Shown: positions 25,328 through 64,000 of the stretch, one piece after another | How positions within the stretch are numbered: the first letter of the stretch is position 1 | Layout of the letters: each line of letters starts with the position of its first letter | Assembly: GCA_030017955.1 (NCBI GenBank) | Contig: JASEGR010000002.1 | Location: forward strand, 10,485-74,484 | DNA: 64,000 nt | Source: Candidatus Eiseniibacteriota bacterium | GTDB lineage: Bacteria > Eisenbacteria > RBG-16-71-46 > JASEGR01 | Reading direction: 5' to 3' | Notes under the pieces: generated by a model | Seen by the model: only the letters and a program-made list of their open reading frames with translations | What the model was told of the DNA's origin: nothing | The model's database searches: none | Position numbers and translations under genes: made by a program

Positions 25328-25478
25328 CAGAAAGTTTGTTAATCAAACCGCGACCATGGAATCTCAAGAGGAATTCTACAAGATCCCTGCCTGGATGACT
25401 CTCGTCCCATAACGTGAATCCTGGGTGTTGATGCCAAGTCAGATATCACGCCTGAAGCTCCCGCGTGACCGTGAGAAG

Positions 25479-25506
25479 TTGACAGTCGTGCGCTGTGTGA
25501 TAACAT
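25479..25506 (+). promoter_or_regulatory. Candidate sigma70 promoter (TTGACA-16 nt-TAACAT)
   Basis: Read directly from the sequence, upstream of the beta-propeller gene. Confidence 0.3.
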
Positions 25507-25559
25507 TTGGCCTTCAGGTCTACGTGTTGGTTCTCAAGTGGCGTTGGAAGGAGGCTAAG

Positions 25560-47736: not shown

Positions 47737-48285
47737 ATGGATGATATGAGAACACAAATAGAGCCGGCACTCGGCGCACGGCTGGATGAAGTTGAGTTCT
47801 TGTTGCAGAGATCAAGCAAGTCACTTTCCAATGTTCTCATCATGGGCGAGAACAAAGCTGTACGGCTTGTTATCGCCTTTTCATTTCACAGCCGGGGAAG
47901 GACATCCCGTCTCCCATTCCTTGCTACAGACTGTAAGAATTTTCTTGGCGAGCTAAAGGAAAAACTGATAGATGGGCTGGACGGAAAAGACCGCAATGCA
48001 GGACATGTATCGCCGGTCACATGGGGAGTGTCCGGGACGACGTTTCTTGATGAGGCCGATGAAATCAGCGTGAGCGAGCAGAAGCTCTTCCTCGAGTTTG
48101 TGAAAGAAAGGGAGAGACAGAAATTTCTGTCGGTGCATTCGCCGATCGGAAGACTCGTGATTGGATCGGGGAAGAACCTCGAGGATTTATGCAGGTGGGG
48201 GAAATTTCTTCCCGAGCTATATGACTGCCTGAACAAAGTCAAGGTGAACCTCGCAAGCACTCCCACGCTGAGACTCGTGGAATAA
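47737..48285 (+). CDS. Degenerate stand-alone sigma54-activator AAA+ core (no Walker A lysine, no GAFTGA, no HTH)
   Basis: VLIMGENKAVRL replaces VLITGESGTGKE. GTTFLDEADEIS (Walker B region), KLFLEFV, RLVIGSGKNLEDL and LYDCLNKVKVNL are retained. Confidence 0.6.
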   Translation: MDDMRTQIEPALGARLDEVEFLLQRSSKSLSNVLIMGENKAVRLVIAFSFHSRGRTSRLPFLATDCKNFLGELKEKLIDGLDGKDRNAGHVSPVTWGVSGTTFLDEADEISVSEQKLFLEFVKERERQKFLSVHSPIGRLVIGSGKNLEDLCRWGKFLPELYDCLNKVKVNLASTPTLRLVE

Positions 48286-48812: not shown

Positions 48813-48828
48813 TGGCATGGTAGTTGCT
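48813..48828 (+). promoter_or_regulatory. Sigma54 promoter (TGGCAT-GGTAG-TTGCT)
   Basis: Exact consensus spacing. It lies 55 nt upstream of ATG 48883 and is nearly identical to the element upstream of gvpA. Confidence 0.65.
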
Positions 48829-48882: not shown

Positions 48883-49359
48883 ATGCTCATGCTTGGAAAT
48901 ACACAGAGGATGCGAAAGAAAAAAGATGTAGCCGCGGATAGGCTACTTAAGAAAACTCGGGCACAATCAAAGCCTATGAAAAGCAGTCAAAAGAAGAAGC
49001 GTGTTTTGGTTGTCGATGACGAAGTGCAGATATGCAACATCGTTCAAAAGGTGTTGTCGCGAGAAGGCTACCACATCGTTACTGCACTTAGTGGTGATGA
49101 GGCCTTGAAGCAGTTGGAAAAAACAGCAGTCGACTTAATCCTGGTGGATTTGAAAATGCCCGGCATGGATGGATTGGAGATGTTAAGACAGGCGCGCGAC
49201 ATTCAGGGGAGTCTGCGAGCGGTCCTCATGACCGCCTATGGAACGGCCTCCTCGGCCCGAAATGCCATGGCTCTTGGCGTTTGCGATTTTGTGGCGAAAC
49301 CATTCGATAACCGACTTCTCAAGAAGGTCGTAAAGGAGGTCCTGGGTGCCGACCGATAA
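48883..49359 (+). CDS. Single-domain response regulator (CheY-like receiver)
   Basis: Contains RVLVVDDE, DLILVDLKMPGMDG, VLMTAYG and FVAKPF. The basic N-terminal tail makes the start uncertain. Confidence 0.85.
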   Translation: MLMLGNTQRMRKKKDVAADRLLKKTRAQSKPMKSSQKKKRVLVVDDEVQICNIVQKVLSREGYHIVTALSGDEALKQLEKTAVDLILVDLKMPGMDGLEMLRQARDIQGSLRAVLMTAYGTASSARNAMALGVCDFVAKPFDNRLLKKVVKEVLGADR

Positions 49360-50041
49360 ACTGCTCGGCTCGTCTCCCGGGCCCAGTCGAGACAGAAGCG
49401 TCGGCCATGCACAGGGGAGGCGAGTAATTTATATTCCAATTATTCACACTCAACATGACATGGGAAGCTTGGCTGCTGCGGCCAAGACGGCCTACATTGA
49501 AAAACTGGGCAAGAGGTTTTGGCAAAACCATGTAGAGGCGATCGACGAAATGTGGTATGGCATCAAGCAGCGCATTTCACGGCTGAGGCTGCCCTTCAAC
49601 AGAGTCCGTATCTATCAAGATGGGTTACCGGTGTGTGGGAGGGAGGAGTGCATCATCGATGCCTTGGCAGGCCAAGGCAGTCCGAACCACTTGATCGTGG
49701 AATGGTTGGTGAAGCGAGGTGCCACGCTCGTTGGAACTGAAGACCCAGAGCTGTTGATTCAGGAGTACGACTACGTGAAGCGAATTATTGCAACCCCGAG
49801 CGGTCCCCAAAGAGAAAATGCGGTGAGGGAATATGAGAAGGTAGCCCCGGAGTTGCTAAAGAAGCGAGACCACTTTATTCAGAACCGGATCGATAGGACC
49901 CTGCCGCAGGGAGGGATAGGTCTGCTTTTCGTGGGGCTGCTGCATCGGGTGGATGAACTCCTGCCGGCAGACATTCGAGTCAGTTACCTCATATATCGTC
50001 TTCCCTTTCAACGTAGCTTTGAAATGGAGTTGCTGAAATAG
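49346..50041 (+). CDS. Conserved hypothetical protein within the regulatory operon
   Basis: GTG start 6 nt after AAGGAGG. 231 aa with no recognised motif. Confidence 0.45.
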   Translation: MPTDKLLGSSPGPSRDRSVGHAQGRRVIYIPIIHTQHDMGSLAAAAKTAYIEKLGKRFWQNHVEAIDEMWYGIKQRISRLRLPFNRVRIYQDGLPVCGREECIIDALAGQGSPNHLIVEWLVKRGATLVGTEDPELLIQEYDYVKRIIATPSGPQRENAVREYEKVAPELLKKRDHFIQNRIDRTLPQGGIGLLFVGLLHRVDELLPADIRVSYLIYRLPFQRSFEMELLK

Positions 50042-50069: not shown

Positions 50070-51190
50070 ATGTTGAACGAATTGCTTAACGTTCAAGATA
50101 TCATTCAAAGCCGCCATGAATTGTTACAACTGTTCGACGGTCTCAGTGACCCTATCATCATGATTGACAGACAGTTTGTCATTCAACGTGTGAATTCGGC
50201 AACTCTCTTGGCCTTGGGCAAGAAATCATTCGATGAATTCATTGAGAAGCCCTGCTACGAAATGCTGCACGGTTTGAGACAGCGCTGTCCTCAGTGTACT
50301 GCACCCTTAACCTTTTCTTCGGACTCTCCTGGACAGAAGACCGTACGCACCGGCTTCATGGAAGCCAAAGAGAACCCGTTGAAAACAACCTATAATATCA
50401 CGTGCTATCCGCTCATCAATGATGAAGGAGAGATAACCTCGATTGCGGAATATTATCGGGACAGCTCCGATATCGTGAATCTGAGCCGGGAACTGTATGA
50501 ATCCGAGCGGGCACGGATCATGGAATCACTGGCAGTGGGACTGGCTCACCAAATCCGGCAGCCGCTGACTATCATACGCTCCGCCGCCCAGTACGGGCTC
50601 GACACATTTACAGCTAAAGACAACTCCGCGAAAAAGGATCTTCGGGAAACCATGGAGAGTATCGTTCAGAATGTGGACACGGTGAACGATGTCCTCAATG
50701 ATTTGTTGCTATTTTCAAAACCTACCCAGTACAAGATGAAGAAGGGGTCTGTTGTTAAGTTGTTACAACAGGGGCTTCGGCTCGTCCGGCAGCTGACTAA
50801 AGAACAGCAGATTTCGGTGGCTACAGATTGGTCCCAAGACCTGCCGGAAATCCTGATCGACGAAAGACTCCTGCTCCAGGCATGTCTGAATTTATTGATG
50901 AACTCGATAGAGTCTATGACGAAGGGAGGACAGTTGACCGTCAAGGCGTTTTGTCAAGAGAATACGACACCTCCCAAAGTCTGCATCGCCATCGAAGACA
51001 CCGGCGTGGGGATCCCCAAGGAACTCATCTCGAAATTGTGTCAGCCTTTCTTTACCACGAAAGAGGGGGGGTCGGCTTGGGCCTGCCTGTTGCTGAAGGA
51101 ATCATTAGGTCGCACAGCGGCCGACTGCACTTTGAAAGTCGGGAAACTGGTGGAACGACAACTGTGATTGAGCTGCCCGTGGTCGTGTGA
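50070..51190 (+). pseudogene. PAS-sensor histidine kinase interrupted by a -1 frameshift in a G7 run
   Basis: The H-box reads LAHQIRQPLT, the N-box LLMNSIESM, and the G1 box EDTGVGIP. After FFTTKEGG (G-run 51065-51071) the G2 box and C-terminus (GVGLGLPVAEGIIRSHSGRLHFESRETGGTTTVIELPVVV) continue in the other frame to 51190. Confidence 0.75.
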
Positions 51191-51206
51191 TTCGGAGTGT
51201 TGTGGT

Positions 51207-52634
51207 ATGGGAATTAGGTACCCAGACGCTCTGATGGGCGATACGATTTACGTCATCGATGATGAAAAAGAGCTCTGCCTGACCCTCAAGAAGGTGTTGG
51301 AAGCCGAAGGATATCAAGTTCATTGGACGACCGACCCAGAGGAATTCCTTCCTAGGCTGCATGATAGCCGGCTCAGTTGCATCCTGCTCGATCTAAAATT
51401 GGGGGGCAAGGACGGCCTCGTTTGTTTGCGAAAGATTCATGAAACCGATCCGCATCTTCCGGTTGTCATGATCACCGCCTACGAAACGGTGAAGACGGCC
51501 GTCGAAGCGATGAAAGCCGGGGCGTTTCACTATTTGTCAAAACCCTTTGACAATGAAGAACTCAAAACGCTAGTAGGCAAGGCGGTTGAACTCCGCCACC
51601 TCTGCTGGGAACTCGAGGACTTCAGAAACAGGGCAGCCAATGCGTCGGACCTGGAATTTACGATGGGACATTCTAATGCTGTTCAGGGGTTGATCAGGCA
51701 ATGTGCTGCCGTGGCACGAACCGATGTCAATGTGCTGCTCACGGGCGAGAGCGGGACGGGCAAGGAGTTGATCGCCAACAGCATCCATCAACTGAGCGCA
51801 AGGAAGGATGGGCCTTGGGTACCAGTAGATTGTGCTTCTATCCCGGAATCTCTTATTGAGAGCGAACTCTTTGGCCATGAGAAGGGAGCTTTTACCGGGG
51901 CCCATGCTGCGCAGAAGGGAAAACTAGAGAAGGCGGATGGCGGGACTCTTTTTTTGGACGAAGTTTCCAACATTCCTTTCAACGTTCAAGCGAAGCTGTT
52001 GCGCTTCCTGGAAACGCATACCTTTGAACGGTTGGGCGGAAGACAGACTGTTGCGATTTCTATGCGAGTTGTCGCGGCTACCAACCGTGAACTTCCTCAG
52101 CTCATCAAGGAGGAAAGGTTCAGGCAAGATCTCTTTCATCGGTTCAACGAGTTTCCATTACGACTGCCGCCTCTGAGGGAACGCGTAGAAGACATCCCTT
52201 ATCTAAGCCTGAAATTCTTGAATGACTTTCAGGAACAGGTTGGCAAAACGTTTTCTGGTTTCAGTAGGCAGGCTTTGGAGGCGCTCCAATCGTATCCCTG
52301 GCCTGGCAATGTGCGAGAACTGCGAAACGTGGTCAAGCGGGCAATGGTTGTGGGTAGTGGCACGATCGAGAAGGCCGATTTGCCTGACGAGATTCGGAAT
52401 CCTTCGGCCTCAGGGACCCACCAAGGAGTGATCGTTTCGATCAAACCGGGTCTTCCGCTTTTCCAGGCCACCAGGGAAGCTGTGAGCATGGTTGAAAAAG
52501 AATTGATCCGGGGCGCTCTACAGCGGGCCGAAGGCCGCAGAGGCAAAGCGGCTGACTTGTTGGGCATTGATGAAAAAACATTGTATAACAAACTCAAGGA
52601 ATACAAGATCTATTTGTGGCAGTTGACAGGATAA
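51207..52634 (+). CDS. NtrC-family sigma54-dependent response regulator (REC, AAA+, Fis HTH)
   Basis: Contains IYVIDDE, CILLDLKLGGKDG, LLTGESGTGKELIA, a canonical EKGAFTGA, and a C-terminal HTH (GKAADLLGIDEKTLYNKLK). The start is ATG 51207 or 51234; the track start at 51168 overlaps the kinase. Confidence 0.9.
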   Translation: MGIRYPDALMGDTIYVIDDEKELCLTLKKVLEAEGYQVHWTTDPEEFLPRLHDSRLSCILLDLKLGGKDGLVCLRKIHETDPHLPVVMITAYETVKTAVEAMKAGAFHYLSKPFDNEELKTLVGKAVELRHLCWELEDFRNRAANASDLEFTMGHSNAVQGLIRQCAAVARTDVNVLLTGESGTGKELIANSIHQLSARKDGPWVPVDCASIPESLIESELFGHEKGAFTGAHAAQKGKLEKADGGTLFLDEVSNIPFNVQAKLLRFLETHTFERLGGRQTVAISMRVVAATNRELPQLIKEERFRQDLFHRFNEFPLRLPPLRERVEDIPYLSLKFLNDFQEQVGKTFSGFSRQALEALQSYPWPGNVRELRNVVKRAMVVGSGTIEKADLPDEIRNPSASGTHQGVIVSIKPGLPLFQATREAVSMVEKELIRGALQRAEGRRGKAADLLGIDEKTLYNKLKEYKIYLWQLTG

Positions 52635-52882: not shown

Positions 52883-52898
52883 TGGCATGAGTTTTGCT
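52883..52898 (+). promoter_or_regulatory. Sigma54 promoter of the gas-vesicle operon (TGGCAT-GAGTT-TTGCT)
   Basis: Exact -24/-12 consensus spacing. It lies 33 nt upstream of the gvpA ATG, with the RBS AAGGGAGGTGA in between. Confidence 0.7.
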
Positions 52899-52930
52899 TC
52901 TGACAAATTGTAAGAAGGGAGGTGAGTTAG

Positions 52931-53146
52931 ATGCCAGTCCAAAAAGCAATGGCGAGTTCTTCACTCGCAGAGGTTATCGATCGCATTCTCGATAAGGGAA
53001 TCGTGATCGATGCATGGGCCCGCCTTTCCCTGGTGGGAATCGAGTTCTTAAGTCTGGAAGCCCGGGTAGTTGTCGCGGGTGTCGAGACGTACCTGAAGTA
53101 TGCGGAAGCCATCGGGCTTACGCAGTCAGCGGCCAGTCCAGCTTAA
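52931..53146 (+). CDS. gvpA: Major gas vesicle structural protein GvpA
   Basis: 71 aa: [54 protein letters not shown]. Confidence 0.95.
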
Positions 53147-53261
53147 ATGAGAACGGGCAGATTTGTCGGGATAACCTCATTCCTTGAGTTTATGTCGCCA
53201 AATCAAGCCGCCCCTTTCGGGGTGTTATGAGTTTCCTATTTGCAAGGAGGGATCAGGCATC

Positions 53262-53831
53262 ATGGGGGGATTCGAACAGGTCAAAGACATGACAGCGGCG
53301 GTAGTGTCGAGTTATGACGAGCGGATCTGCGCCGTGGGAGAGATCGTCGAAAAGGGCCTCGCAATGCTTGATCAGTGTCGTCTTGTGGAGCAGGCTGTGC
53401 AATACGAGCTAAGAGAAAGACTAGCGAGGGTAGAGTCTCTGCGCAAGAAAGATTTTGATCAACTCATGGCCCCCATTTTGATCTACCAAAGTACAAGGGA
53501 ACAAGAGATTAGGCAGTTCATGAACTTTTTTCTGAAAACACAAAGGGAACTGGCAAGCCAGCTGAAAAGGATGATTGAAGCGGAGATTTTCTCAAGAGTC
53601 CCTGACCTGGAGAAAATCATCCAGACAAACATCGAGGCGGCGAGAGAACACGTAATCGGTTTCCAGAAAGAACAGGCAGTAATCGGGCGGAGAATGCGGC
53701 ACCTGTTTCTCAAACAGGAAGATCTCACTTTGAAGGAATTTAGAAAGACCGTGGACATTCTCTGTGGAGAACTGGGCTTGGAGAAGGAAGAAAAACTCGC
53801 AATGCCGGCAGCAGTATTGTCGCATTGCTAA
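53262..53831 (+). CDS. Coiled-coil protein in the gvpC position, paralog 1 (189 aa)
   Basis: ATG 53262 follows AAGGAGGG. It shares the N-terminal motif SSYDERICAVGEIVEKG with the next ORF (ASYNERVNFLGKNIVDT). The sequence is helical and charged. Confidence 0.5.
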   Translation: MGGFEQVKDMTAAVVSSYDERICAVGEIVEKGLAMLDQCRLVEQAVQYELRERLARVESLRKKDFDQLMAPILIYQSTREQEIRQFMNFFLKTQRELASQLKRMIEAEIFSRVPDLEKIIQTNIEAAREHVIGFQKEQAVIGRRMRHLFLKQEDLTLKEFRKTVDILCGELGLEKEEKLAMPAAVLSHC

Positions 53832-53847
53832 AAAGGAGGTGACTACC

Positions 53848-54186
53848 ATGGGATTGGCACAGCAGTTTACAAACCTCGGGGAAGATATGATCGCCTCCTA
53901 CAATGAGAGGGTGAATTTCCTCGGGAAGAATATCGTGGATACCCACAGGCTCCTTGGCGGCTTCAGAAAAGACCACAAAGCAATGGGCAGAAAGCTCAGG
54001 AGCGATCTGGCCGTCTTTCCGATTGCCCTGACGGAGACGGTTGATCAGATGCTGTCCAAGTTCCGAAAGGAACACCGGGAGGCCCATCGCGCGTGGCAAC
54101 AAGTGGCCAGGACGATGGCAAGCAAGCGCCATAACTTCAATGCAGCGCTGACGAAGGCCAAGCAAAGCGCTGCCCGGACGCGCTGA
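53848..54186 (+). CDS. Coiled-coil protein, paralog 2 (112 aa)
   Basis: ATG 53848 follows AAAGGAGGTG and gives MGLAQQFTNLGEDMIASYNERVNFLGKNIVD. Confidence 0.5.
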   Translation: MGLAQQFTNLGEDMIASYNERVNFLGKNIVDTHRLLGGFRKDHKAMGRKLRSDLAVFPIALTETVDQMLSKFRKEHREAHRAWQQVARTMASKRHNFNAALTKAKQSAARTR

Positions 54187-54216
54187 AACACGGCTTTTTC
54201 ACGGAAGATCACGTCC

Positions 54217-54234
54217 CTCCGCCTCAGGGCGGAG
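54217..54234 (+). other. GC-rich hairpin (CTCCGCC-TCAG-GGCGGAG), possible intra-operon attenuator
   Basis: Read directly from the sequence. It follows the three promoter-proximal genes and has no U-tract. Confidence 0.3.
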
Positions 54235-54261
54235 CGGACCTGATCCTCCCTGGAGGAAAAG

Positions 54262-54621
54262 ATGTCCAACCTAGTTCAGAAAACGACCCACCTATCCCAC
54301 ACCAAGAAGATACCATGTGCCTTTTGCAGAGGGACAGGAAAAGATCCATTCGGACAACTCTATCCGGGATCGACCTGCCAGGTCTGCCATGGAAGGAGAG
54401 AGGTCTATCTCCTTACCCCTTATAAAGCCTGTGCCTATTGTCATGGAACCGGAGTCGCCTTCAGCACGCAAAATACCTGCACTTCCTGCAAGGGGCGGGG
54501 TGTCATCAGCCTGGGGAATCAAGGCTTAAAAGGAATAATTTGTAGTGCCTGTGGCGGGACAGGAATGAATGCTGAGATGAACCTTCCCTGTGCCACCTGC
54601 AATGGGCTTGGCTCCATTTAG
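54262..54621 (+). CDS. Stand-alone DnaJ-type cysteine-rich zinc-finger protein with six CxxCxGxG-like repeats
   Basis: The repeats are CAFCRGTG, CQVCHGRR, CAYCHGTG, CTSCKGRG, CSACGGTG and CATCNGLG within 119 aa. Confidence 0.7.
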   Translation: MSNLVQKTTHLSHTKKIPCAFCRGTGKDPFGQLYPGSTCQVCHGRREVYLLTPYKACAYCHGTGVAFSTQNTCTSCKGRGVISLGNQGLKGIICSACGGTGMNAEMNLPCATCNGLGSI

Positions 54622-54636
54622 GAAGGAGATGCAAAG

Positions 54637-55575
54637 ATGGAAACGCAGGAAATGACTCTCTTACAACCGCAAGCAGGTAAAGAGTTTGTAGAGACTCCAT
54701 TTGTCAGAACGACCGTGGCGCGGGCTATGCATTATCTTAGGGCCGGCTTTCCAGTTCATTTTCGGGGAATCTCGGGCACAGGAAAGACGACACTCGCCCT
54801 CAGGATTGCAGAACTGCTCGAAAGACCAGTCGTGATGATCCACGGGGATGAGGATCTCAACACAGCCGACTTGGTCGGCGCGGAGACCGGCTATCATGTG
54901 AGGAAACTCCGGGACAACTTTATTTCTTCCGTTCTGAAGATCGAAGAGGAGATGTCCAAGCGGTGGGTCGACAGCCGACTGACCGTGGCGGTCGAGAACG
55001 GCTACACCCTGATTTATGATGAATTCACCCGTTCGCGGCCGGAGGCAAACAATATCCTCCTCTCCGTCCTCCAGGAAGGAATACTGGATCTCCCTCTGAG
55101 CCGGGATGGAGGACAGGCCAGCCATCTCAAAGTCCATCCAGAGTTCCGTGCAGTCTTCACCTCGAATCCGGAAGAGTACGCTGGGGTCCACCGCTCCCAG
55201 GACGCTTTGCGAGACCGCATGGTCACCCTTGATTTGGAGTCATTCGATGAGATCACAGAGTGCGCCATCACCAAGGCCAAGTCGGGACTCTCCCTGGAAG
55301 GGGTGAAAAAGATAGTGAAGATCGTGCGCTACCTGAGAGAACACGGGCAATATGAGTTCTCCCCCACGATCCGGGGCTGCATCATGATCGCAAGGACCGT
55401 CAGGGAGTATGGAAAGGAAGTTCAAGTTTGTGCCTCCGATTCCCTTTTCTCTTCCATCTGTCTGGATATCCTCACGTCCGAGACTTCTCGGATCGGGAGC
55501 AAGACGACCTCTGCCAAGGTGAGGGAGGTAGTAAGAAAAGCGATCGAAGAATACTGCGGTAACGGAAACCGATGA
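54637..55575 (+). CDS. gvpN: Gas vesicle AAA+ ATPase GvpN
   Basis: 312 aa with FRGISGTGKTTLALRIA and LIYDEFTRS. Confidence 0.9.
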   Translation: METQEMTLLQPQAGKEFVETPFVRTTVARAMHYLRAGFPVHFRGISGTGKTTLALRIAELLERPVVMIHGDEDLNTADLVGAETGYHVRKLRDNFISSVLKIEEEMSKRWVDSRLTVAVENGYTLIYDEFTRSRPEANNILLSVLQEGILDLPLSRDGGQASHLKVHPEFRAVFTSNPEEYAGVHRSQDALRDRMVTLDLESFDEITECAITKAKSGLSLEGVKKIVKIVRYLREHGQYEFSPTIRGCIMIARTVREYGKEVQVCASDSLFSSICLDILTSETSRIGSKTTSAKVREVVRKAIEEYCGNGNR

Positions 55576-55591
55576 ATCAAGGAGGAACGAT

Positions 55592-55933
55592 ATGCCAATC
55601 CCGGTAAATTTACCCAAAGGTTGCTCTTCAAGTCGCGGGGCCTCGGACATCCGCCACATGAGTTCGAGAAGAGCCAGTTTGGTCCAAGAGACCAATCGGC
55701 TCTATATGCTTAGTGTCAGGCACGAAAGCCTGATGAACAAGAGGTCTGCCATGGCGCTCAGACTCAAGGAGATCAATGAGCAACTCAAGGGGATAGAGAC
55801 GGACATTGGTGCAACTGACAAACAGTACAGGAAGTTGCAAGGGAACAGCTCGCACAAAAGGAACAGCAAACGTGCGCAAATGAGCGGAAGAAACAATGGC
55901 CGCTCCGTAAGGGCAGTTCCCTTCAAATTCTGA
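55592..55933 (+). CDS. Basic coiled-coil hypothetical protein downstream of gvpN
   Basis: ATG follows AAGGAGGA; 113 aa. This is the position occupied by small accessory gvp genes in other clusters. No motif recognised. Confidence 0.45.
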   Translation: MPIPVNLPKGCSSSRGASDIRHMSSRRASLVQETNRLYMLSVRHESLMNKRSAMALRLKEINEQLKGIETDIGATDKQYRKLQGNSSHKRNSKRAQMSGRNNGRSVRAVPFKF

Positions 55934-55990
55934 CAAAAATGCGCAAATACTTGAGCTTGCTCCAACCTGCCAGCAGAGGAGGAGAATATT

Positions 55991-56524
55991 ATGAAAGAAG
56001 AGAAAAAGAAGAAAGCTGCATCCGTAGCGGAAGCCGGAGGATTTCTCGGGGGTCTTTTTAAAGGATTGGGAGATCTTATCGACCTTGCGGACAAAGTTAG
56101 TCAAGAAGGAGGAACCATCCAGAAGCAAGGTGAATTTCGCATCCCCGGACAAAAGGATGCGAAAGGAGTTTTTGGATTTACCGTCCGAAGCATGGCGGGG
56201 CCCGGTGGCGAAAGGCGCCCCATCGTCGAGCCTTTCGGGAATATCAAGAGGACCCAAGAAGGGCCTGTGGTTGAGGAGACCAGGGAGCCCATTGTTGATG
56301 TTTTCGAAGAGAAAGATGCTGTCCAGATCGTTGCAGAGCTCCCCGGTGTGACCGAACAAGAAATCCACTGCGAGGTTCACGGAGATGTGGTCGCTCTGTC
56401 TACCAGCGGAAAGCGGAAATACAACAAGGAGATTCTACTGAAAGACCCTGTGGAAGAAAAACCTACCAAGGTTAGCTACAGAAACGGCATGTTTGAGCTG
56501 AAGCTGAAAAAGAGGCAAAACTGA
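55991..56524 (+). CDS. Hsp20/alpha-crystallin-domain protein (GvpH-like)
   Basis: The C-terminal half reads VDVFEEKDAVQIVAELPGV...VSYRNGMFELKLKK, which is alpha-crystallin-like. The N-terminus is Gly-rich. Confidence 0.8.
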   Translation: MKEEKKKKAASVAEAGGFLGGLFKGLGDLIDLADKVSQEGGTIQKQGEFRIPGQKDAKGVFGFTVRSMAGPGGERRPIVEPFGNIKRTQEGPVVEETREPIVDVFEEKDAVQIVAELPGVTEQEIHCEVHGDVVALSTSGKRKYNKEILLKDPVEEKPTKVSYRNGMFELKLKKRQN

Positions 56525-56589
56525 AAGTGAACTTTTCCAAACCTTTGCCACGGGTTCCAGTGACCCGGGTTTTAGAAACGTGAGACTCT

Positions 56590-58773
56590 ATGAGTAGCCC
56601 GCCAAAACAATTATCTCCTCATCCCAAACTAGATACGCTAACCCTCCGAGTTAGTGAAGCATTAACCAAAGATGTCGGCCACGGCATTGCCCGTCTCGAT
56701 CCAGCGGATATGGAAAAACTGGCATGTCAGGTTGGCGATACAATCTACATTGAAGGAAAACGGACCACAATTGCCAAAGTCGCGCCAACCTATCAAGAAA
56801 ATCGTGGGGAAAAGTGCATCCAAATGGATGGAATCTTGCGCGAAAATGCCAAAGTCGGGCTGGATGAAAAGGTTCACATTCGCACGACCACAGTTGTACC
56901 AGCCAGGTCCTTGCGCCTGAAGACAACGCTGGGGGCTCTCAGACAGAGTTCCCTTCCGAGCGCAGACCGTTACATGGGGCGTCTGCTGGAGGGTTTGCCG
57001 GTAATCAAGGGAGACAAAATCCGGGCTCTCTTGTTTGGTTCCCGCACCCGTGATTTTGAGGTGGTCGATACTCTGCCCGAAGGGGCCGTGCTCATTGCAT
57101 CGACTACCCAAATCAACATTGAGGGAGAAGAGCACAAGGGGGGAGAAAAACAGCCTACTGCCGTTTCATACGAGGATGTTGGAGGCCTTGGCAAAGAGAT
57201 TCAGCGTATCCGGGAGATGGTGGAGCTTCCCCTCAAATACCCTGAAGTGTTTGACCGCTTAGGAATCGATCCTCCCAAGGGAGTCCTGCTCTACGGGCCA
57301 CCAGGGACCGGCAAGACCTTGATTGCACGTGCGGTTGCTCACGAATCGGAAGCCAATTTCTTCTCCGTGAATGGTCCGGAAATTGTGCATAAGTTTTATG
57401 GTGAGAGTGAAGCTCATCTCCGCAGTATTTTTGAACGGGCGAGCCAGTCTCCGGCCTCGATTCTGTTTATCGATGAAATTGATGCCATTGCGCCAAAACG
57501 GGCAAACGTTCAGGGGGAGGTGGAAAAGCGGATCGTTGCCACACTGCTTTCGCTCATGGACGGTCTCAAATCGCGGGGGCAGCTCATCGTGATCGGGGCA
57601 ACCAACATGCCCGATCTTCTGGATCCCGCCTTGAGACGCCCGGGTCGGTTCGACCGCGAGATCCAGATCGGGATCCCGGACCGGAATGGACGCCTGAACA
57701 TCCTGGAGATTCATACACGCGGCATGCCGCTCGCCAAGGATGTGAGTATCGCTAAATTGGCTGAGATCACGCATGGCTATGTAGGGGCGGATCTCGAAGC
57801 ACTGGCCAGAGAAGCTGCCATGAGTTGCCTCCGTTCACTGTTTCAAGAAAAGGACATCTCCCTGGAAGAAATTCCTGACGAGGTGATTCAGAGCCTCGAA
57901 GTCCGCATGGATCACTTCTTGGAGGCCTTACGCGAAGTAGAGCCTTCAGCCATCCGGGAGGTGAGCATTGAGATTCCCGATGTTCGATGGGAAGATGTTG
58001 GAGGACTCGATGCGGTGAAGGAGACATTAAGAGAAACGATAGAGTGGCCTCTCAAGTATGATAGGTTATTTGAAATTGCTAGGTTGCGACCCATCAAGGG
58101 GATCTTGCTTCATGGCCCGCCTGGGACCGGTAAGACCCTGCTCGCCAGAGCCCTGGCCACGGAAAGTGGCGTCAATTTTGTTTCGGTTAAAGGACCCGCC
58201 TTGCTGTCAAAATGGGTGGGCGAGTCTGAGAAGGCATTGAGGGAAATCTTCAAGAAGGCCAAAGCGGCCGCTCCTTGTATCTTGTTTTTTGATGAGATCG
58301 ACAGCTTGGCCCCGCATCGTCATGGCGGAGGGAGCGACTCTGGAGTGATGGAACGATTGATGAGCCAATTCCTAGCAGAGTTCGACGGAATCGAGGAGCT
58401 CAAGGGGGTTCTTGTTCTGGCTGCCACGAATCGGAAGGATCTGATCGATCCTGCCTTACTTCGCCCAGGGAGATTCGACCTTCTGATTGAACTTCCTCTG
58501 CCGGATCTCAAAGCCCGGCAGGCTATCTTCGAGATTCATACGAAGGGAAAACCGCTGGACAAGGGTGTGGACTTAGAGGCCTTAGCTCAAGTCACACAGG
58601 GCTGGAATGGATCCGAAATCGAAGGGATTTGCCGCCAGGCTGCCGTGAACGCTCTGAGAAGTTTCATCGTGGGTGATGAGAAAGAAGGGATGGGGAAGGT
58701 GGCAGGATTCAAGATTAGTATGAAGGATTTCCAAAACGCAGTGGCAGCTTCAAAGGAGGGCCCCGGGAAATGA
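56590..58773 (+). CDS. CDC48/VCP-like double-ring AAA+ ATPase
   Basis: 727 aa with a CDC48-N-like start ([20 protein letters not shown]...[10 protein letters not shown]). Both AAA modules carry GPPGTGKT and a FIDEIDA/FFDEIDS Walker B motif. Confidence 0.9.
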
Positions 58774-59834
58774 GTTGCTATCTCTATGGTGTCATTGAAT
58801 CAGAACGGGCGATAAGTTTCGGCCCTATTGGTTTCGAAATAGGAGACAGGAGGAGAGGGTTGGTTGTAGCAATGCCAGACCCTTCGGCCAAGCTTCCCAC
58901 AGCTCAGACTCTTGCAGCAGTCATTGGTCCGGTGCGGCAAGTGAATTTCGATTGTCTCAACAAGGAACGATTGGTCAGGACTTTGTTAGCCCATCAGGAA
59001 ACCATGGAGACAATCATGAGAGACCAGTTCATCCTTCCCTGTAAATTCGGCACGGTATTAAGGGACCAGCAAGAGGCCAGGGAGCTCCTTTCCCAGAACG
59101 GAACACTCTTGGCTGAATGGCTTGACAGAATGCAAGACAGCTACGAGATGGGTGTCGTTGCAAGCTGGGATATCCATCCGATTTTGAAAGAAATTGCGGC
59201 TAGCGATTCTGAGGTCATGGAACTGAAGGCGCGTTTAGAATTGTTGTCTTTGGAGGAACAGGAAAGGGGGAAACTGCCTTTGGGGATGCTCCTATCGGCA
59301 AAATTGAAGGAACGAGCTCAGCGTTATGCCGAAGATATCGTTGCAGGATTAGAGGAAGTAAGTGAGTCCCACGCCACCCATGACTTGATAAATGACGAGA
59401 TGGTTCTCAACGCCTCTTTCTTACTTTCTCGCGCTGGCGATGACGCCTTTTTCAGGGCCCTGGAGGGTTTGGACAATCGGTGGGCCGGAAAATTGAATCT
59501 TAAGTGTATCGGTCCCCTGCCTCCTTACAGTTTTGCCACAGTTACCATCAAACGGTTTGATCTGGAAAGGATCCATCGGGCCTATGACACGTTGGGACTA
59601 AAGCGTCATGCGGATGTGGATCAGGTGAAGCGCGCCTACAGAAACATGGCACGTCAATGTCATCCCGACACCCATCGTGGATTGGACAAGGGAGAATTTC
59701 TGGGCGTCCATCAGGCGTATGAACTCCTGGTTGAATATTATGAAGGAGGCTGCAAGCCGACGAAGGTGGCCTTGTCTAGAGTGGAAGAAGGAAATGTGGA
59801 AGAACACACGTCGAGTCAACCGGTCTTGGTATGA
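58770..59834 (+). CDS. GvpF/L-family protein fused to a C-terminal J-domain
   Basis: The N-terminus [21 protein letters not shown] and IGPLPPYSF are GvpF/L hallmarks. The C-terminus [32 protein letters not shown] carries an HPD tripeptide. Confidence 0.8.
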
Positions 59835-60577
59835 AGCACGAGGGAAAATACGTTTACGGAATTATCGCTGCTGAAGATGCTCCCAATTTTGGTCCTATTG
59901 GGATTGGCGGCCATGATGATGAGGTGACGACCATCGGGACCAGAGGGATTGCCGCGGTGGTCAGTAGGGCTTCAACGGATCACTTTGTTGTTTCCATGGA
60001 AAATCTGACCGCCCACATCAAGGTGGTTGAGAGAATCATGGAATCTTACACGGTGCTTCCTATGCGCTTTTGTACGGTGGCTGAGACGGCGGACGAGATT
60101 ATTGCGTTTTTGGAAAAAAACTCTAGAGAGTTGAAAGGCAAGTTAAAAGATCTCGATGGTAAAGTAGAGATTGACATAAAAATAGTCTGGACGGACATGA
60201 AAAAGGTCTACGAGGAGATTGTCAAAGAAAATAGAAGAATTCGGGCACTGAAGACAAAGGAGACAACGGGAACCCGGCAAGACCTGATCCGCGCCGGCGA
60301 ACTCGTTGCCACAGCTTTGGAAGAAAAGAAGGCAGTTGAAGGAGATAGATATCTAAGGCTTTTCAAGAAGGCCGCGGCCGACTGCAAAGAAGATGAGCCA
60401 GGCGCAGACGAAATGGTAGCCCACGCTGCATTCTTGATCGACAAGGGTTGGCTGAAGGAATTTAACAACACGGTTGAAGGGGTGGGGGAGGAGTTCAAGG
60501 AAAGAATTCAGATTCACTGTGTGGGCCCCCTGGCGCCCTTTAGTTTTGTGAACTTGCAGCTGCACTGGGTAGAGTAA
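59831..60577 (+). CDS. Gas vesicle protein GvpF/L family
   Basis: KYVYGIIAAEDAPNFGPIGIGG...VGPLAPFSF. Confidence 0.85.
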   Translation: MKHEGKYVYGIIAAEDAPNFGPIGIGGHDDEVTTIGTRGIAAVVSRASTDHFVVSMENLTAHIKVVERIMESYTVLPMRFCTVAETADEIIAFLEKNSRELKGKLKDLDGKVEIDIKIVWTDMKKVYEEIVKENRRIRALKTKETTGTRQDLIRAGELVATALEEKKAVEGDRYLRLFKKAAADCKEDEPGADEMVAHAAFLIDKGWLKEFNNTVEGVGEEFKERIQIHCVGPLAPFSFVNLQLHWVE

Positions 60578-61393
60578 ATGCAGGAATTGAAAGAGGAGAA
60601 CGTTGCTGTGATCGAACCAACCGGACTGTGGGTCTACTGTGTGATCCACAATAGGGGGATTCTAAACCTGGAGACTCAGGGTATTCATGGGACCAGCCCC
60701 GTTCATACGGTGGCCCATGGGGATTTTGCAATGGTTGTTTCCGCGGAACCGATGAAAAAATATCGCTTGGCCCGTGATTTTCTCATCGCGCATCAACTGG
60801 TCAATGAGAAGGTCATGCAGACCCAACCAGTGCTGCCGGTCAAGTTTTGCACGATGGCCAAAAATGCGGAGCAAATCGTCGAACAGGTCCTAAAGCAGAA
60901 AGAGAAGACGGAGGAATTCCGCAAGACATTTGCCGAAATTGACGGGAAGAATGAGTACGGTTTGCGAGCCCGATGGAAAAACATGGACCAGGTTTTTGCA
61001 GACTTGACCCAAGAAAATGAAAAAGTCAAAACGGCAAAAGAGAGGGCCCTGAGACTGTCGAACTCCGAACGCCATGTTGCTCTGATTGATATTGGCCATG
61101 TCGTGAAGGAGGCCCTTGAGGAGAAAAATGCCAGGACAGCCGAGTTGTTGATCCGTGAACTCGCCCCTCACGCTGTCCAGTACAAAAGGCAAAATGTCCT
61201 TGGAGACATGAACATTCTCAATACCGCTTTCCTGGTTGATGCGGAGAGGCAAGTCCGGTTTGATCTGGCCGTGAATACCTTGGTGGAGAGGTATGAGTCC
61301 CTGATGCAGTTCAAGTATGTAGGGCCCGCGCCGCCCTTTAATTTTGTTGAGATTGTCATTCACTGGGATGGGACCGGTAACACGACAGGTTAA
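60578..61393 (+). CDS. Gas vesicle protein GvpF/L family
   Basis: LWVYCVIHNRG...VLPVKFCT...VGPAPPFNF. Confidence 0.85.
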   Translation: MQELKEENVAVIEPTGLWVYCVIHNRGILNLETQGIHGTSPVHTVAHGDFAMVVSAEPMKKYRLARDFLIAHQLVNEKVMQTQPVLPVKFCTMAKNAEQIVEQVLKQKEKTEEFRKTFAEIDGKNEYGLRARWKNMDQVFADLTQENEKVKTAKERALRLSNSERHVALIDIGHVVKEALEEKNARTAELLIRELAPHAVQYKRQNVLGDMNILNTAFLVDAERQVRFDLAVNTLVERYESLMQFKYVGPAPPFNFVEIVIHWDGTGNTTG

Positions 61394-61395
61394 CC

Positions 61396-61623
61396 ATGGC
61401 ATTCTTATTCGATGATTTAGTTTTCTGGATTGGCAAAAGAGTCAAAGAAATAGCTGATGAGGAGTTGTATGGGGATTCGAAGAAGATTCACGAGCAACTG
61501 CTTTCCCTTCAGACCAGACTGGATATGGGAGAGATCCAAGAGGAAGAGTATAAGGTCAGAGAGATGGAGATCTTGGATCGATTGCAGGAGGCCCAAGAGC
61601 ATGAAGAACAAAACGAGACATAG
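61396..61623 (+). CDS. gvpG: Gas vesicle protein GvpG
   Basis: 75 aa: FLFDDLVFWIGKRVKEIADEELYGD...EEEYKVREMEILDRL. Confidence 0.8.
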   Translation: MAFLFDDLVFWIGKRVKEIADEELYGDSKKIHEQLLSLQTRLDMGEIQEEEYKVREMEILDRLQEAQEHEEQNET

Positions 61624-61677
61624 GAATGTCGAAGAGCAAATCAAGAAGGAGTTGAACACTTTGGAAAGGAGGTGTTT

Positions 61678-61935
61678 GTGTTGGGCATTCACGAAGTAAA
61701 GGTCAGGGTTGCAGAGTTTCTTCAAAATGAGTTAGGGCAAGAGCCCGAGGCTTTTAGATTTCTCAAACTGGCCAAGTCGGATGGTGGTTGGGAAGGAACA
61801 GTGGAGGTGACCGAGCTAAATGAGTATTTGAAGAAGCTCGGTTACCCTCCTATTTTCGACAAGAACCGCTATGCGGTTGCGTTGGATGAAAATCTGAATG
61901 TCATCCGGTACGGACGCGAAGAGGAGGAGGAATAA
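61678..61935 (+). CDS. gvpO: Gas vesicle protein GvpO-like
   Basis: DGGWEGTVEVTELNEY...YAVALDENLNVIRYGR fits the GvpO pattern. The start codon is uncertain (GTG 61672, GTG 61678 or TTG 61681) and follows GGAAAGGAGG. Confidence 0.6.
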   Translation: MLGIHEVKVRVAEFLQNELGQEPEAFRFLKLAKSDGGWEGTVEVTELNEYLKKLGYPPIFDKNRYAVALDENLNVIRYGREEEEE

Positions 61936-62160
61936 GTGCCGCTCATCCATTCTACAAGGGGAGATACTTTGGCCGATGTGGTGGAGCGGATTCTTGACAA
62001 GGGGTTGGTGATCAATGCCGATATCGCGATCTCTCTGGCCGGTACCGAGCTCCTGAGCATCAAGATCCGCGCCGCGTTGGCGTCCTTCGAGACGGCGGCA
62101 AAATGGGGGTTGGCATTTCCTTCGGAAGTGAGAATCGCTCAGCCAGTTCCGAAAGCGTAG
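61936..62160 (+). CDS. GvpA-family minor protein (GvpJ/M/S-like)
   Basis: GTG start follows GAGGAGGAGG. The sequence reads LADVVERILDKGLVINADIAISLAGTELLSIKIRAALASFETA. Confidence 0.85.
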   Translation: MPLIHSTRGDTLADVVERILDKGLVINADIAISLAGTELLSIKIRAALASFETAAKWGLAFPSEVRIAQPVPKA

Positions 62161-62213
62161 GAATACATGATGATGTCTCTGCCAAGGCTTAGACACTTAT
62201 GAAAGGAGATAAT

Positions 62214-62393
62214 ATGGCCAGCAACGAGAAAGAAAAGAAAGAGGAAATCGCAGATGATATTTTTGAGACCGTGGATAAAATCATTCCCGGCTTCGGCTCC
62301 TTCTTCAAGAAGGGAGAGAAAAGCGAGAAGTTCGGTGACCGCATGAGAAAAATCCGTGAGGAGATCAACAAGCGTTTTGGGGGGATGAGATAA
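62214..62393 (+). CDS. Small charged hypothetical protein (59 aa)
   Basis: ATG 62214 follows AAAGGAG. PGFGSFFKKG loosely echoes GGFLGGLFKGLG in the N-terminus of the Hsp20 ORF. Confidence 0.4.
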   Translation: MASNEKEKKEEIADDIFETVDKIIPGFGSFFKKGEKSEKFGDRMRKIREEINKRFGGMR

Positions 62394-62444
62394 TTGTAAG
62401 GATGCCTGAGTGGTGGGCCTCAAGGAGTCAAGCGGTTCCTAACC

Positions 62445-62768
62445 ATGAAGATCGAAGTCGATGATAAGGATCTAAAACATGGCCTGTTGGGATTGGTTTT
62501 GGCCATCATTGAGGTAATCCGAGATACCTTGAGGATTCAATCCCTCAAGAGAATGGAAGGCGGCCATCTGACCGAGGAACAAATTGACCGGTTGGGGGTC
62601 GCCCTGCTGGAGTTGGACAAGGCGATAGAGAAAATCAAAGAGGAACAGGGAATTTCGGAAGCGGTGCGGTCTGTGCGCGATGGGCTTGACGATTTGGTGG
62701 ATGGGATGGTCCAGAAATTGGCTGATCCCAGCCCAGTTACTGACAAGGAAGTGACGCTGGTGGGTTAG
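62445..62768 (+). CDS. gvpK: Gas vesicle protein GvpK
   Basis: LKHGLLGLVLAIIEVIRDTLRIQSLKRMEGGHLTEEQIDRLG. Confidence 0.85.
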   Translation: MKIEVDDKDLKHGLLGLVLAIIEVIRDTLRIQSLKRMEGGHLTEEQIDRLGVALLELDKAIEKIKEEQGISEAVRSVRDGLDDLVDGMVQKLADPSPVTDKEVTLVG

Positions 62769-62782
62769 AAGGAGTTTGGTCT

Positions 62783-63556
62783 ATGACTGCCGACGGGATT
62801 TATGTCTACTGCGTTACGAAGGGAGATCGGGAAGAATCATTGGATGTGCGGGGTATCGAAGGAGCACGAGTGCGGGTCATGACTCACCAGGGATTGGCAG
62901 CGATCGGGCAAGACTGTGAGCCCAAGCTGTTTGCCTCTCAAGGCCAGAGTGTTTTGACGGATTGGCTCCTGATCCATCAAAGTATCGTGGATCTTTCATG
63001 GGAGCGATACGAAACTATCGTTCCGTTTGCGTTTGGCATGATCGTTGTGCCCACGAACGGGAAACCCGCCCGGCAAAACCTCGATGAGTGGCTGGAAAAG
63101 CAATCGGCGGAACTCAACCGCAAATTGGAAAATCTCAAAAACAAGGCGGAATATGGCGTCCAGGTTTTGTGGGATCTAGCCACGATTGTTTCGCGTATTA
63201 GGGAACAAGATAACGAGATCCTGAATCTGGAGAAGGAGATCTGCTCCAAACCGACAGGGGTCGCTTATCTGCTGCAACAAAAACTGGAGGAACTGATCCG
63301 ACAGCGTTTGGAGACGGCTGCCAATACGCATTTCAAGGCCTTCTATCAACAAATCCGTGAATCTGTTGAGGACATCCGCGTGGAAAGGATAAGGAAAGAA
63401 GAGCTCCCAAGACAAATGATCCTGAACGTCTCTTGCCTGCAAAACAGGGATGAAACGGCAACCCTGGGGGCAGTGTTGGAAAGAATCGGCCAGATTCCTG
63501 GTTTCGATGTCCAATTCACCGGTCCCTGGCCGCCGTACTCCTTCGTCAGTGTTTGA
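62783..63556 (+). CDS. Gas vesicle protein GvpF/L family (fourth copy)
   Basis: GIYVYCVTKGD...IVPFAFG...TGPWPPYSF. Confidence 0.8.
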   Translation: MTADGIYVYCVTKGDREESLDVRGIEGARVRVMTHQGLAAIGQDCEPKLFASQGQSVLTDWLLIHQSIVDLSWERYETIVPFAFGMIVVPTNGKPARQNLDEWLEKQSAELNRKLENLKNKAEYGVQVLWDLATIVSRIREQDNEILNLEKEICSKPTGVAYLLQQKLEELIRQRLETAANTHFKAFYQQIRESVEDIRVERIRKEELPRQMILNVSCLQNRDETATLGAVLERIGQIPGFDVQFTGPWPPYSFVSV

Positions 63557-63577
63557 CTGTTAATAGTTACCACTCTT

Positions 63578-63832
63578 ATGGAACCAACTCGACAGGGCAG
63601 AGCAACTCTCGCGGACCTATTGGATCGGGTTCTAGATAAAGGTCTGGTTCTCAACGCAGACGTAATTATTACGCTAGCTGGTGTTCCTCTAATTGCCGTG
63701 AGCCTCTCTGCAGCAATCGCCGGTGTGGAGACCATGCTTGAGTATGGTCTCATGAAAGATTCTATTCTATCCCAGACTCTTCAAGAAAAGAGATTTGCGG
63801 ACCCCGTGCCAGAACAAGTTGAACTAGGGTAG
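63578..63832 (+). CDS. GvpA-family minor protein (GvpJ/M-like)
   Basis: LADLLDRVLDKGLVLNADVIITLAGVPLIAVSLSAAIAGVETMLEYG. Confidence 0.85.
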   Translation: MEPTRQGRATLADLLDRVLDKGLVLNADVIITLAGVPLIAVSLSAAIAGVETMLEYGLMKDSILSQTLQEKRFADPVPEQVELG

Positions 63833-63922: not shown

Positions 63923-64000
63923 ATGAAAACCCTTAAGAAGGTTCTGAGCATCATTGCCCTCATCTCAGTTTCGATCTTTACACTCCACGCGCTCTCTCTG
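63923..64000 (+). CDS. Start of an ORF with a signal-peptide-like N-terminus (truncated by the window edge)
   Basis: My translation is MKTLKKVLSIIALISVSIFTLHALSL... Only 26 codons are visible. Confidence 0.3.
   Translation, partial: MKTLKKVLSIIALISVSIFTLHALSL

Follow-up and report, generated by a model that had tools for sequence, protein, structure and literature searches.

The 64,000-nt stretch of DNA analyzed here, hereafter the window, is taken from contig JASEGR010000002.1 of a Candidatus Eiseniibacteriota bacterium (assembly GCA_030017955.1). Positions 52883-63832 hold a gas vesicle (gvp) operon of 18 consecutive + strand open reading frames (ORFs), all intact. In it, genes for a Cdc48-type unfoldase, a small heat-shock protein (sHsp), a DnaJ-type zinc-finger protein and a GvpF/L protein fused to a J-domain (GvpF-J) lie among the standard gvp genes (Table 1). 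The ORFs are tightly spaced, with intergenic gaps of at most about 115 nt and 4-nt overlaps at two junctions, cdc48/gvpF-J and gvpF-J/gvpF2. The window shows no surplus of terminator-like sites (12 found against 13.2 expected), and none is internal to the operon. An original prediction, made from the sequence alone, had listed this gene order, and every family it named was recovered when the window ORFs were searched against Pfam and NCBIfam. This includes the chaperone-like ORFs, which match CDC48, DnaJ, DnaJ_CXXCXGXG and, just under the cutoffs, Hsp20. With all the defining genes present (GvpA, GvpN, GvpF/L, GvpG, GvpK and GvpJ/M types), the region qualifies as a gvp cluster.

How the extremely hydrophobic GvpA stays soluble and enters the growing gas-filled shell is unresolved, as are the roles of most accessory Gvp proteins. 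The cluster-encoded sHsp, J-domain, Cdc48 and zinc-finger proteins, with Hsp70 where it is present, are concrete candidates for activities still missing from the picture of shell assembly or quality control.

Chaperone genes of the operon

In the Cdc48-type protein, PF02359 (1e-25), PF02933 (3.7e-10) and, in two stretches, PF00004 were detected, and the best match among solved structures is Thermoplasma VAT (5g4f, 724 bits). The motif GPPGTGKT occurs twice, together with FIDEID, FFDEID and the aromatic pore loops KFYGE and KWVGE; 35 cluster-linked homologs retain the Walker A and B motifs and the pore-loop aromatics of both rings. Docking to the 20S proteasome is unlikely, because the C-terminal HbYX motif, which serves this purpose in archaeal Cdc48 and PAN, is absent from the window protein (ending ...SKEGPGK) and from all 35 of these homologs. 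Judged by its motifs, the protein is described as an active, stand-alone threading motor and not a proteasome cap.

The bond between this Cdc48 and gvp genes was also seen from outside the cluster. Five Cdc48 homologs of 61-64% identity were picked from a general protein search only for their long contigs, blind to gene context, and all five sit inside gvp clusters, supporting the assignment of the window protein to a gvp-linked clade. In one of the five, from Desulfofundulus sp. TPOSR (GCA_011393055.1, locus L086), which has three tandem gvpA genes, the order is ArsA - Cdc48 - GvpF, and this GvpF carries no J-domain; Cdc48 is therefore tied to gvp genes and not merely to the GvpF-J fusion.

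GvpF-J, whose start codon overlaps the cdc48 stop, scores 44.9 bits against Pfam DnaJ (cutoff 27.8), and its HPD motif (H298-P299-D300) is invariant in an alignment of 20 sequences extending down to 28% identity. In an AlphaFold2 model (pLDDT 86.8), helices 283-297 and 307-325 flank the HPD in the succession helix II - HPD - helix III. In Foldseek comparisons the N-terminal part of the model matches GvpF crystal structures (6l5d, 2e-14; 4qsg), and the hairpin matches many J-domains and superposes on that of DnaK-bound DnaJ (5nro_B, root-mean-square deviation 1.5). By modeled fold and HPD motif, GvpF-J carries a J-domain, and it is predicted to stimulate Hsp70. J-domains act only via an Hsp70.

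The alpha-crystallin domain of the sHsp is, by sequence, clearly related to known families, though below their curated thresholds. It scores 123 bits against the NCBIfam archaeal Hsp20 model NF041800 (cutoff 140), 20.4 against Pfam HSP20 (cutoff 20.8; 5.5e-4) and 20.9 against GvpH (cutoff 22; 4e-4). The zinc-finger ORF, predicted to form three Zn centers, gives weak matches to Anti-TRAP (2.3e-4) and BSD2_CRD (0.0022) and also matches the DnaJ cysteine-rich domain structure 1exk (3e-4).

A split DnaJ, with the J-domain on GvpF and the zinc finger on the separate ORF, was considered as a canonical DnaJ and rejected. In a canonical type I Hsp40 a single polypeptide carries the J-domain, G/F region, zinc finger and C-terminal substrate-binding domains; here the remaining DnaJ domains are missing, and DnaJ equivalog scores reach 35-37 bits against cutoffs of 338-377.

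Distribution of the chaperone set in related loci

A protein search with GvpF-J returned about 95 clusters (at 90% identity) that carry both PF06386 and PF00226, all of them from metagenomes or metagenome-assembled genomes (MAGs) and annotated only as 'GvpL/GvpF family' or hypothetical. When the GvpF-J alignment was scanned against species-representative genomes, 458 stretches matched and 80 loci were kept; these span more than 20 phyla and include the cultured Ktedonobacter robiniae, Ktedonobacter sp. SOSP1-85 and Dictyobacter vulcani. Loci collected in this way, via the GvpF-J fusion, were annotated with the window proteins as queries (85-87 loci, depending on the analysis), adjacency being taken from predicted starts and gene order.

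The fusion was found in 81 of the 85 loci analyzed, in more than 20 phyla, and in 47 of 86 the gene immediately before gvpF-J encodes a Cdc48, 11 of these loci having the same 4-nt ATGA overlap as the window. Gene content was counted in the 26-27 full loci, defined as having at least 7 kb on both sides: Cdc48 is present in 22, Hsp70 in 11 and GvpN in 24 (n = 27), Hsp20 in 23-24, an ArsA/Get3-like ATPase in 19-20 and the zinc-finger protein in 15-16 (of 26-27). Among the conserved neighbors of cdc48, hsp20 on its upstream side and gvpF-J on its downstream side predominate, and their stop and start codons frequently overlap. Two MAG loci, one from Nitrospirae (L001) and one binned as Chlamydiae (L005), reproduce the window gene order almost gene for gene. 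The comparison of synteny across gvp-containing genomes that the original prediction had called for thus supports the chaperone set as a conserved component, embedded in the operon, of a type of gvp cluster with members in many phyla. Nor is the set confined to this genome, being present, under generic annotation, in many public genomes.

These data bear on the possibility that general stress genes landed in the cluster by chance, or that the locus is decaying or non-functional. The histidine kinase gene adjoining the operon is frameshifted and the source organism is uncultured, its gas vesicles being a prediction from the genes; in addition, an Hsp20 in the gvp cluster of a candidate actinobacterium has been read as a link to heat shock (PMC7325909). 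Against this stand the synteny kept across more than 20 phyla, the invariant HPD, the five of five context-blind Cdc48 homologs in gvp clusters and the 18 intact, tightly spaced ORFs. The cluster Cdc48s are also 51-100% identical to each other (median 60%), while the neighboring GvpF-J falls to 22%. We regard chance or decay as highly improbable.

Two further occurrences deserve mention. The plasmid collection held a single J-fusion cluster, without Cdc48, on plasmid pOA238_160 of the cultured Octadecabacter arcticus 238 (NC_020910.1; locus L091, 13794-14876). Its GvpF-J, WP_015497776.1, has GvpL_GvpF and DnaJ matches (the latter 28.0 bits), is annotated in RefSeq only as GvpL/GvpF family, and is accompanied by Hsp20; many transposases flank the cluster. 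Octadecabacter arcticus is gas-vacuolate. A short contig binned as Candidatus Methanoperedens, an archaeal MAG (L038), carries a Cdc48 - GvpF-J - GvpF - GvpF segment, and its archaeal assignment could reflect horizontal transfer or a binning error.

Hsp70 in related gvp clusters

A full-length Hsp70 is encoded on the cluster strand in 23 related loci. In eight loci, most of them Anaerolineales MAGs, its gene immediately precedes gvpF-J, as it does in L090, where the order is hsp20 - hsp70 - gvpF-J. All five of the well-flanked loci without Cdc48 have Hsp70 (Fisher one-sided p 0.006; n = 27 loci). In one Anaerolineales MAG contig (CAZPMV010000274.1, L023:1-3006), Hsp70, GvpF and the J-domain occupy one stop-free frame of 1002 codons, with Hsp70 at residues 4-598, GvpF at 640-879 and the J-domain at 896-954. 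This is apparently a natural Hsp70-GvpF-J triple fusion, a stop lost by sequencing error being the alternative; such a 'Rosetta-stone' protein would tie GvpF directly to the Hsp70 cycle.

Across the loci the module is best described as an sHsp, a J-domain adaptor and at least one ATP-driven unfoldase (Cdc48 and/or Hsp70), with or without ArsA and the zinc-finger protein. The window is the Cdc48, sHsp, zinc-finger and J variant of this module.

Proposed role of the module

Taking gene content, intact motifs, operon structure and cross-phylum linkage together, we lean towards reading the locus as a sigma54/NtrC-controlled gvp operon, of a widespread and unstudied type, that includes a client-dedicated proteostasis module for the shell subunits. 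The GvpF domain of GvpF-J would bind newly made, aggregation-prone subunits of the GvpA family, and the J-domain would recruit Hsp70 to this client and switch on its ATPase. Here the Hsp70 would be housekeeping DnaK, and in many relatives the cluster-encoded protein. The sHsp and the DnaJ-type zinc-finger protein would act as ATP-independent holdases that keep subunits recoverable, and the Cdc48/VAT-type hexamer, translationally coupled to GvpF-J, would thread mis-assembled or aggregated subunits and free them for the growing shell. Such a scheme would follow the logic of the sHsp / DnaJ-DnaK / ClpB disaggregation triad, with Cdc48 replacing ClpB and GvpF as the client-specific adaptor. Haloarchaeal GvpF binds GvpA monomers and has been suggested to maintain their solubility, and GvpA, GvpJ and GvpM form inclusion bodies in the absence of chaperones (PMC9501494). 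Proteotoxic stress from gas vesicle expression has been reported in E. coli (PMC12848028).

Several points weigh against this reading. The 64-kb window encodes no Hsp70, and the J-domain must therefore rely on a partner outside the view. The original prediction of a self-contained, dedicated set accordingly survives in part: the set looks dedicated and is conserved in gvp clusters, but it is not self-contained, because a J-domain works only through Hsp70. The module parts are separable, since L086 and L088 have Cdc48 in gvp clusters whose GvpF genes lack the J-domain and the O. arcticus cluster carries GvpF-J but no Cdc48. Well-studied clusters form vesicles with no such module, which is thus not universally required. 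The distance matrices of Cdc48 and GvpF-J are strongly correlated (Mantel r 0.88, reached by none of 2000 permutations), which may reflect shared inheritance rather than interaction. Because the loci were collected via the GvpF-J fusion, the frequencies given above are not those of gvp clusters generally. The Cdc48 lacks the M-domain of ClpB, the usual route of substrate handover from DnaK, and cooperation between Cdc48 and Hsp70 is, to our knowledge, not established in bacteria. Beyond domain integrity and linkage, we infer the steps of the mechanism, including substrates, physical contacts and the net direction (assembly and quality control or disassembly), and a role in disassembly is just as compatible with this gene content.

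The main alternative is that the module dismantles vesicles. Cdc48, with GvpF-J/Hsp70 and the sHsp, would pull GvpA from collapsed or unwanted shells for subunit recycling or to lower buoyancy on demand, much as ClpV (ClpB in Francisella) acts on contracted sheaths of the type VI secretion system (T6SS). The original prediction had proposed an assembly or quality-control pathway from gene content only, and disassembly or recycling fits that evidence too; all the linkage data fit it as well as they fit assembly. Aromatic pore loops in both rings and the missing HbYX would suit a stand-alone segregase for a very stable polymer, and characterized clusters assemble without Cdc48, which may thus not be an assembly factor. 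ClpV unfolds contracted T6SS sheaths and is likewise an AAA+ unfoldase encoded within the gene cluster of its polymer; it belongs to a different AAA+ family, and gas vesicle disassembly by the window Cdc48 is hypothetical. T6SS disassembly offers a precedent for an AAA+ unfoldase inside a structural gene cluster (PMC7182274). Three features speak for assembly instead. The module is co-transcribed with gvpA from the same promoter, with no internal terminators, and would therefore be produced while vesicles are being built. The fusion of the J-domain to GvpF, a binder of monomeric GvpA in haloarchaea, suggests unassembled subunits as the client. Lastly, holdases of the sHsp and zinc-finger type are better suited to clients that are nascent or aggregated than to an ordered shell. 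We therefore think dismantling unlikely as the role of the module.

If the proteostasis reading is extended beyond this operon, it would imply that a large, mostly uncultured share of bacteria builds or recycles gas vesicle shells in an ATP-driven, chaperone-catalyzed manner, with GvpF as a client adaptor that passes GvpA-family subunits to Hsp70, by way of its fused J-domain, and to a dedicated Cdc48. We offer this tentatively, as a possibility that falls well short of likely. Were it true, it would give a bacterial Cdc48 clade its first defined cellular role, and the sHsp / J-Hsp70 / Cdc48 machine, previously unrecognized, could be transplanted to help recalcitrant gvp clusters in heterologous hosts. 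The conserved module also gives this clade a likely client, the gas vesicle shell proteins. Gas vesicles serve as acoustic reporter genes, and most natural clusters do not assemble in E. coli and provoke proteotoxic stress; the module bears on this failure. An acoustic-reporter screen, for which clusters with few non-gvp genes had been deliberately selected, obtained assembly in E. coli from only 5 of 15 (PMC10344784).

Comparison with characterized systems

The core genes gvpA, N, F/L, G, K, J/M and O are common to the window and to the clusters of Halobacterium (p-vac/c-vac), Anabaena/Microcystis, Bacillus megaterium and Serratia sp. ATCC 39006. Characterized clusters also share with the window a gene for a helical protein after gvpA, in the gvpC position, and the Hsp20-like protein is comparable to haloarchaeal GvpH. 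Unlike them, the window has four GvpF/L paralogs.

The original prediction also held that no characterized gvp cluster combines a J-domain, a DnaJ cysteine-rich module and a CDC48. This is borne out by a 2022 review of characterized gvp systems, which lists no Cdc48, J-domain, Hsp70 or zinc-finger protein (PMC9501494). Among the full-text papers searched, with subscription-only literature outside the scope, none places any of these four in a gvp cluster. Castillo and Saier in 2010 described extra ATPases (ArsA) and Hsp20 in gvp clusters of Chlorobi, Bacteroidetes, Geobacter, cyanobacteria and Acidobacteria, without mention of Cdc48, J-domain, Hsp70 or zinc-finger proteins (PMC2963123). Hsp20 and ArsA were thus already known from gvp clusters, and it is the combination that appears undescribed in the searched literature. 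The window differs from the ArsA/Get3-containing clusters in having no ArsA.

Outside gas vesicles, a parallel in chaperone classes is the bichaperone system (IbpA/B, DnaJ-DnaK-GrpE, ClpB), with which the window shares an sHsp holdase, J-domain targeting and a two-ring AAA+ motor. However, the AAA+ protein in the window is a Cdc48/VAT homolog without an M-domain and not ClpB, the J-domain sits on a client-specific GvpF and not with DnaJ substrate-binding domains, the zinc-finger module is a separate protein, and the whole set lies in the operon of its client. The Cdc48 shares its double-psi barrel N-domain, D1 and D2 with VAT/Cdc48/p97 and actinobacterial Cpa, and aromatic pore loops in both rings with VAT; unlike VAT/Cdc48/p97, it is bacterial, encoded inside an organelle gene cluster, and without a C-terminal HbYX. 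BSD2, an assembly chaperone for Rubisco, and anti-TRAP are, like the window ORF, small stand-alone CxxCxGxG zinc-finger proteins without a J-domain, but the window ORF has six repeats, three predicted Zn centers and linkage to gvp genes.

Standard gvp genes and small ORFs

The features of the operon and its immediate upstream region are listed in Table 1. Its four PF06386 proteins match with E values from 1e-48 to 9e-56. The divergent gvpO falls to a marginal score when searched directly; PF05800 is matched by all 16 aligned members of its positional family (best 5.1e-26), through which we count the ORF as a GvpO family member. In another locus (L089, 6549-7088), a 179-residue product combines GvpA-family and GvpK domains in one protein.

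Table 1. Features of the gas vesicle operon and the adjoining regulatory genes (window coordinates; pI, isoelectric point; GRAVY, grand average of hydropathy)
Feature	Coordinates	Strand	Evidence
PAS histidine kinase, apparently frameshifted at a G7 run (51065-51071)	50070..51190	+	PAS_4, HisKA, truncated HATPase_c
NtrC-type sigma54 activator (receiver, AAA+, HTH_8)	51168..52634	+	Sigma54_activat 3e-67, Response_reg 1.5e-27, HTH_8 3.8e-13
Sigma54-type -24/-12 promoter element TGGCATGAGTTTTGCT	52883..52898	+	Score 10 of 11; 48 nt before gvpA
gvpA, major shell protein, 71 aa, GRAVY +0.62	52931..53146	+	PF00741 1.6e-15; NF006874 129 bits (cutoff 100)
Helical protein cc1, tentatively GvpC-like surface protein	53262..53831	+	Position after gvpA; family evidence
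Helical basic protein cc2, pI 11.0, N-terminal paralog of cc1	53848..54186	+	Similarity to cc1
Stand-alone DnaJ-type zinc-finger protein, 119 aa, six CxxCxGxx repeats	54262..54621	+	PF00684 1.3e-10
gvpN, MoxR-type AAA+ ATPase	54637..55575	+	TIGR02640 327 bits, 6.5e-98, above cutoff; AAA_5
Basic 113-aa ORF, pI 11.3, position after gvpN conserved	55592..55933	+	Homologs in 23 loci, three rounds of hidden Markov model searches
Small heat-shock protein, alpha-crystallin type, GvpH/Hsp20-like	55991..56524	+	NF041800 8.2e-36
VAT/Cdc48-type double-ring AAA+ unfoldase	56590..58773	+	TIGR01243 910 bits (cutoff 803); CDC48_N, CDC48_2, two AAA
GvpF/L paralog with C-terminal J-domain (GvpF-J)	58770..59834	+	GvpL_GvpF 1e-48; DnaJ 1.3e-11; 4-nt overlap with cdc48 stop
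GvpF/L paralog 2	59831..60577	+	PF06386 3.1e-55
GvpF/L paralog 3	60578..61393	+	PF06386 9.1e-56
gvpG	61396..61623	+	PF05120 2.7e-16
Divergent gvpO, 87 aa	61672..61935	+	Direct PF05800 match E 0.0077, 16.7 bits
GvpA-family minor protein, GvpJ/M type	61936..62160	+	PF00741 3.9e-17
Charged 64-aa ORF, syntenic in relatives	62199..62393	+	Homologs in 18 loci, iterative searches
gvpK	62445..62768	+	PF05121 7e-18
GvpF/L paralog 4	62783..63556	+	PF06386 5.4e-55
GvpA-family minor protein, GvpJ/S type; last operon gene	63578..63832	+	PF00741 5.7e-16

The two helical proteins after gvpA, cc1 and cc2, had been described as coiled-coil paralogs. The paralogy holds for an N-terminal stretch of about 55 residues (27% identity, E 5e-5) and is limited to that stretch. 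Neither protein has a Pfam or NCBIfam match. Both fall in a family with 71 members in 39 loci, present as a rule in duplicate directly after gvpA. GvpC is recognized by its 33-residue repeats; one of ten family members matches the GvpC repeat PF01304 (1.1e-5), while cc1 and cc2 do not, and among solved structures the family profile gives only weak apolipoprotein-type matches. Because of the position of this family right after gvpA and the one member matching the repeat, we tentatively regard cc1 and cc2 as GvpC-like surface proteins. The basic 113-aa and charged 64-aa ORFs, likewise without a Pfam or NCBIfam family match, are probably undescribed Gvp accessory proteins.

Promoter, upstream regulators and neighboring genes

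Potential sigma54 promoters were sought as GG-N10-GC elements of the pattern TGGCAC-N5-TTGCW. The motif is not enriched window-wide (3 found against 3.55 expected), and the predicted promoter ahead of the operon, TGGCATGAGTTTTGCT, is upheld on other grounds: its position just before gvpA and directly downstream of the PAS kinase and NtrC-type activator genes, and the equally strong sites (10 of 11) before gvpA in the close relatives L005 and L006, against a background of 0.35% per 250 nt. The site in L001 is weaker, and among all surveyed loci good sites before gvpA are limited to the closest relatives. By sequence and position, TGGCATGAGTTTTGCT is thus a putative sigma54-dependent promoter with an activator of the cognate type adjoining. 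The activator resembles GvrA and GvrC of Serratia, which are NtrC-type regulators. Its true start is probably the ATG at about 51234 and not the TTG at 51168, because the kinase frame continues to 51187. Homologs of the kinase align in one frame to about 51071 and then in the other frame to 51187; the frameshift at the G7 run may stem from a sequencing error, mark a pseudogene or lie in a tract prone to slippage.

The regulatory block upstream of the operon is unusually rich, and this bears on another possible role of Cdc48, namely that it regulates the gvp regulon by unfolding one of its transcription factors or signaling proteins, or by handing it to degradation. Such a role would recall GvpD, an NTP-binding repressor (PMC9501494); this haloarchaeal P-loop protein represses by eliminating the activator GvpE. 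In L088 and L089, cdc48 adjoins genes for a response regulator, an uncharacterized protein and a kinase. Against this, the main neighbors of cdc48 are hsp20 and gvpF-J, with overlapping codons frequent, the complementarity with Hsp70 points to protein handling and not gene control, and there is no HbYX for docking to a protease. A regulatory Cdc48 is, in our estimate, quite improbable, and handling of shell subunits remains the role that we prefer.

Three sigma54-activator-type genes lie within 11 kb upstream of the gvp operon, the NtrC gene included. The first is part of a 1716-residue fusion (41920-47070) with Ser/Thr kinase, STAND ATPase, TPR, GAF, sigma54-activator and HTH domains, and after it comes a Sigma54_activat fragment that is truncated and stands alone (47737-48285). 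Another sigma54-like site, TGGCATGGTAGTTGC, at 48813-48827, precedes a single-domain response regulator gene (48883-49359), which is overlapped by an ORF of 231 residues without a family match (49346-50041). Pairs of a receiver protein and an uncharacterized protein of 204-246 residues also adjoin the gvp clusters in L001, L005, L088 and L089, and may be an uncharacterized regulatory module of these clusters.

On the other side of the operon, a + strand ORF begins at 63923, 91 nt past the last gvp gene, and runs off the window. Its N-terminus resembles a signal peptide (MKTLKKVLSIIALISVSIF...), and the ORF does not encode an Hsp70. Farther upstream there is a type I restriction-modification system composed of hsdM (17211-19343), hsdS (19340-20527) and hsdR (22124-25327), with a Schlafen/AlbA-type gene (20559-21965) separating hsdS from hsdR and a 616-residue ORF without a Pfam match (25425-27275) after hsdR. 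Other neighboring genes in the window encode a NiFe hydrogenase, NuoF-like and Hdr-like proteins and molybdoenzymes, which suggest an anaerobic source organism.

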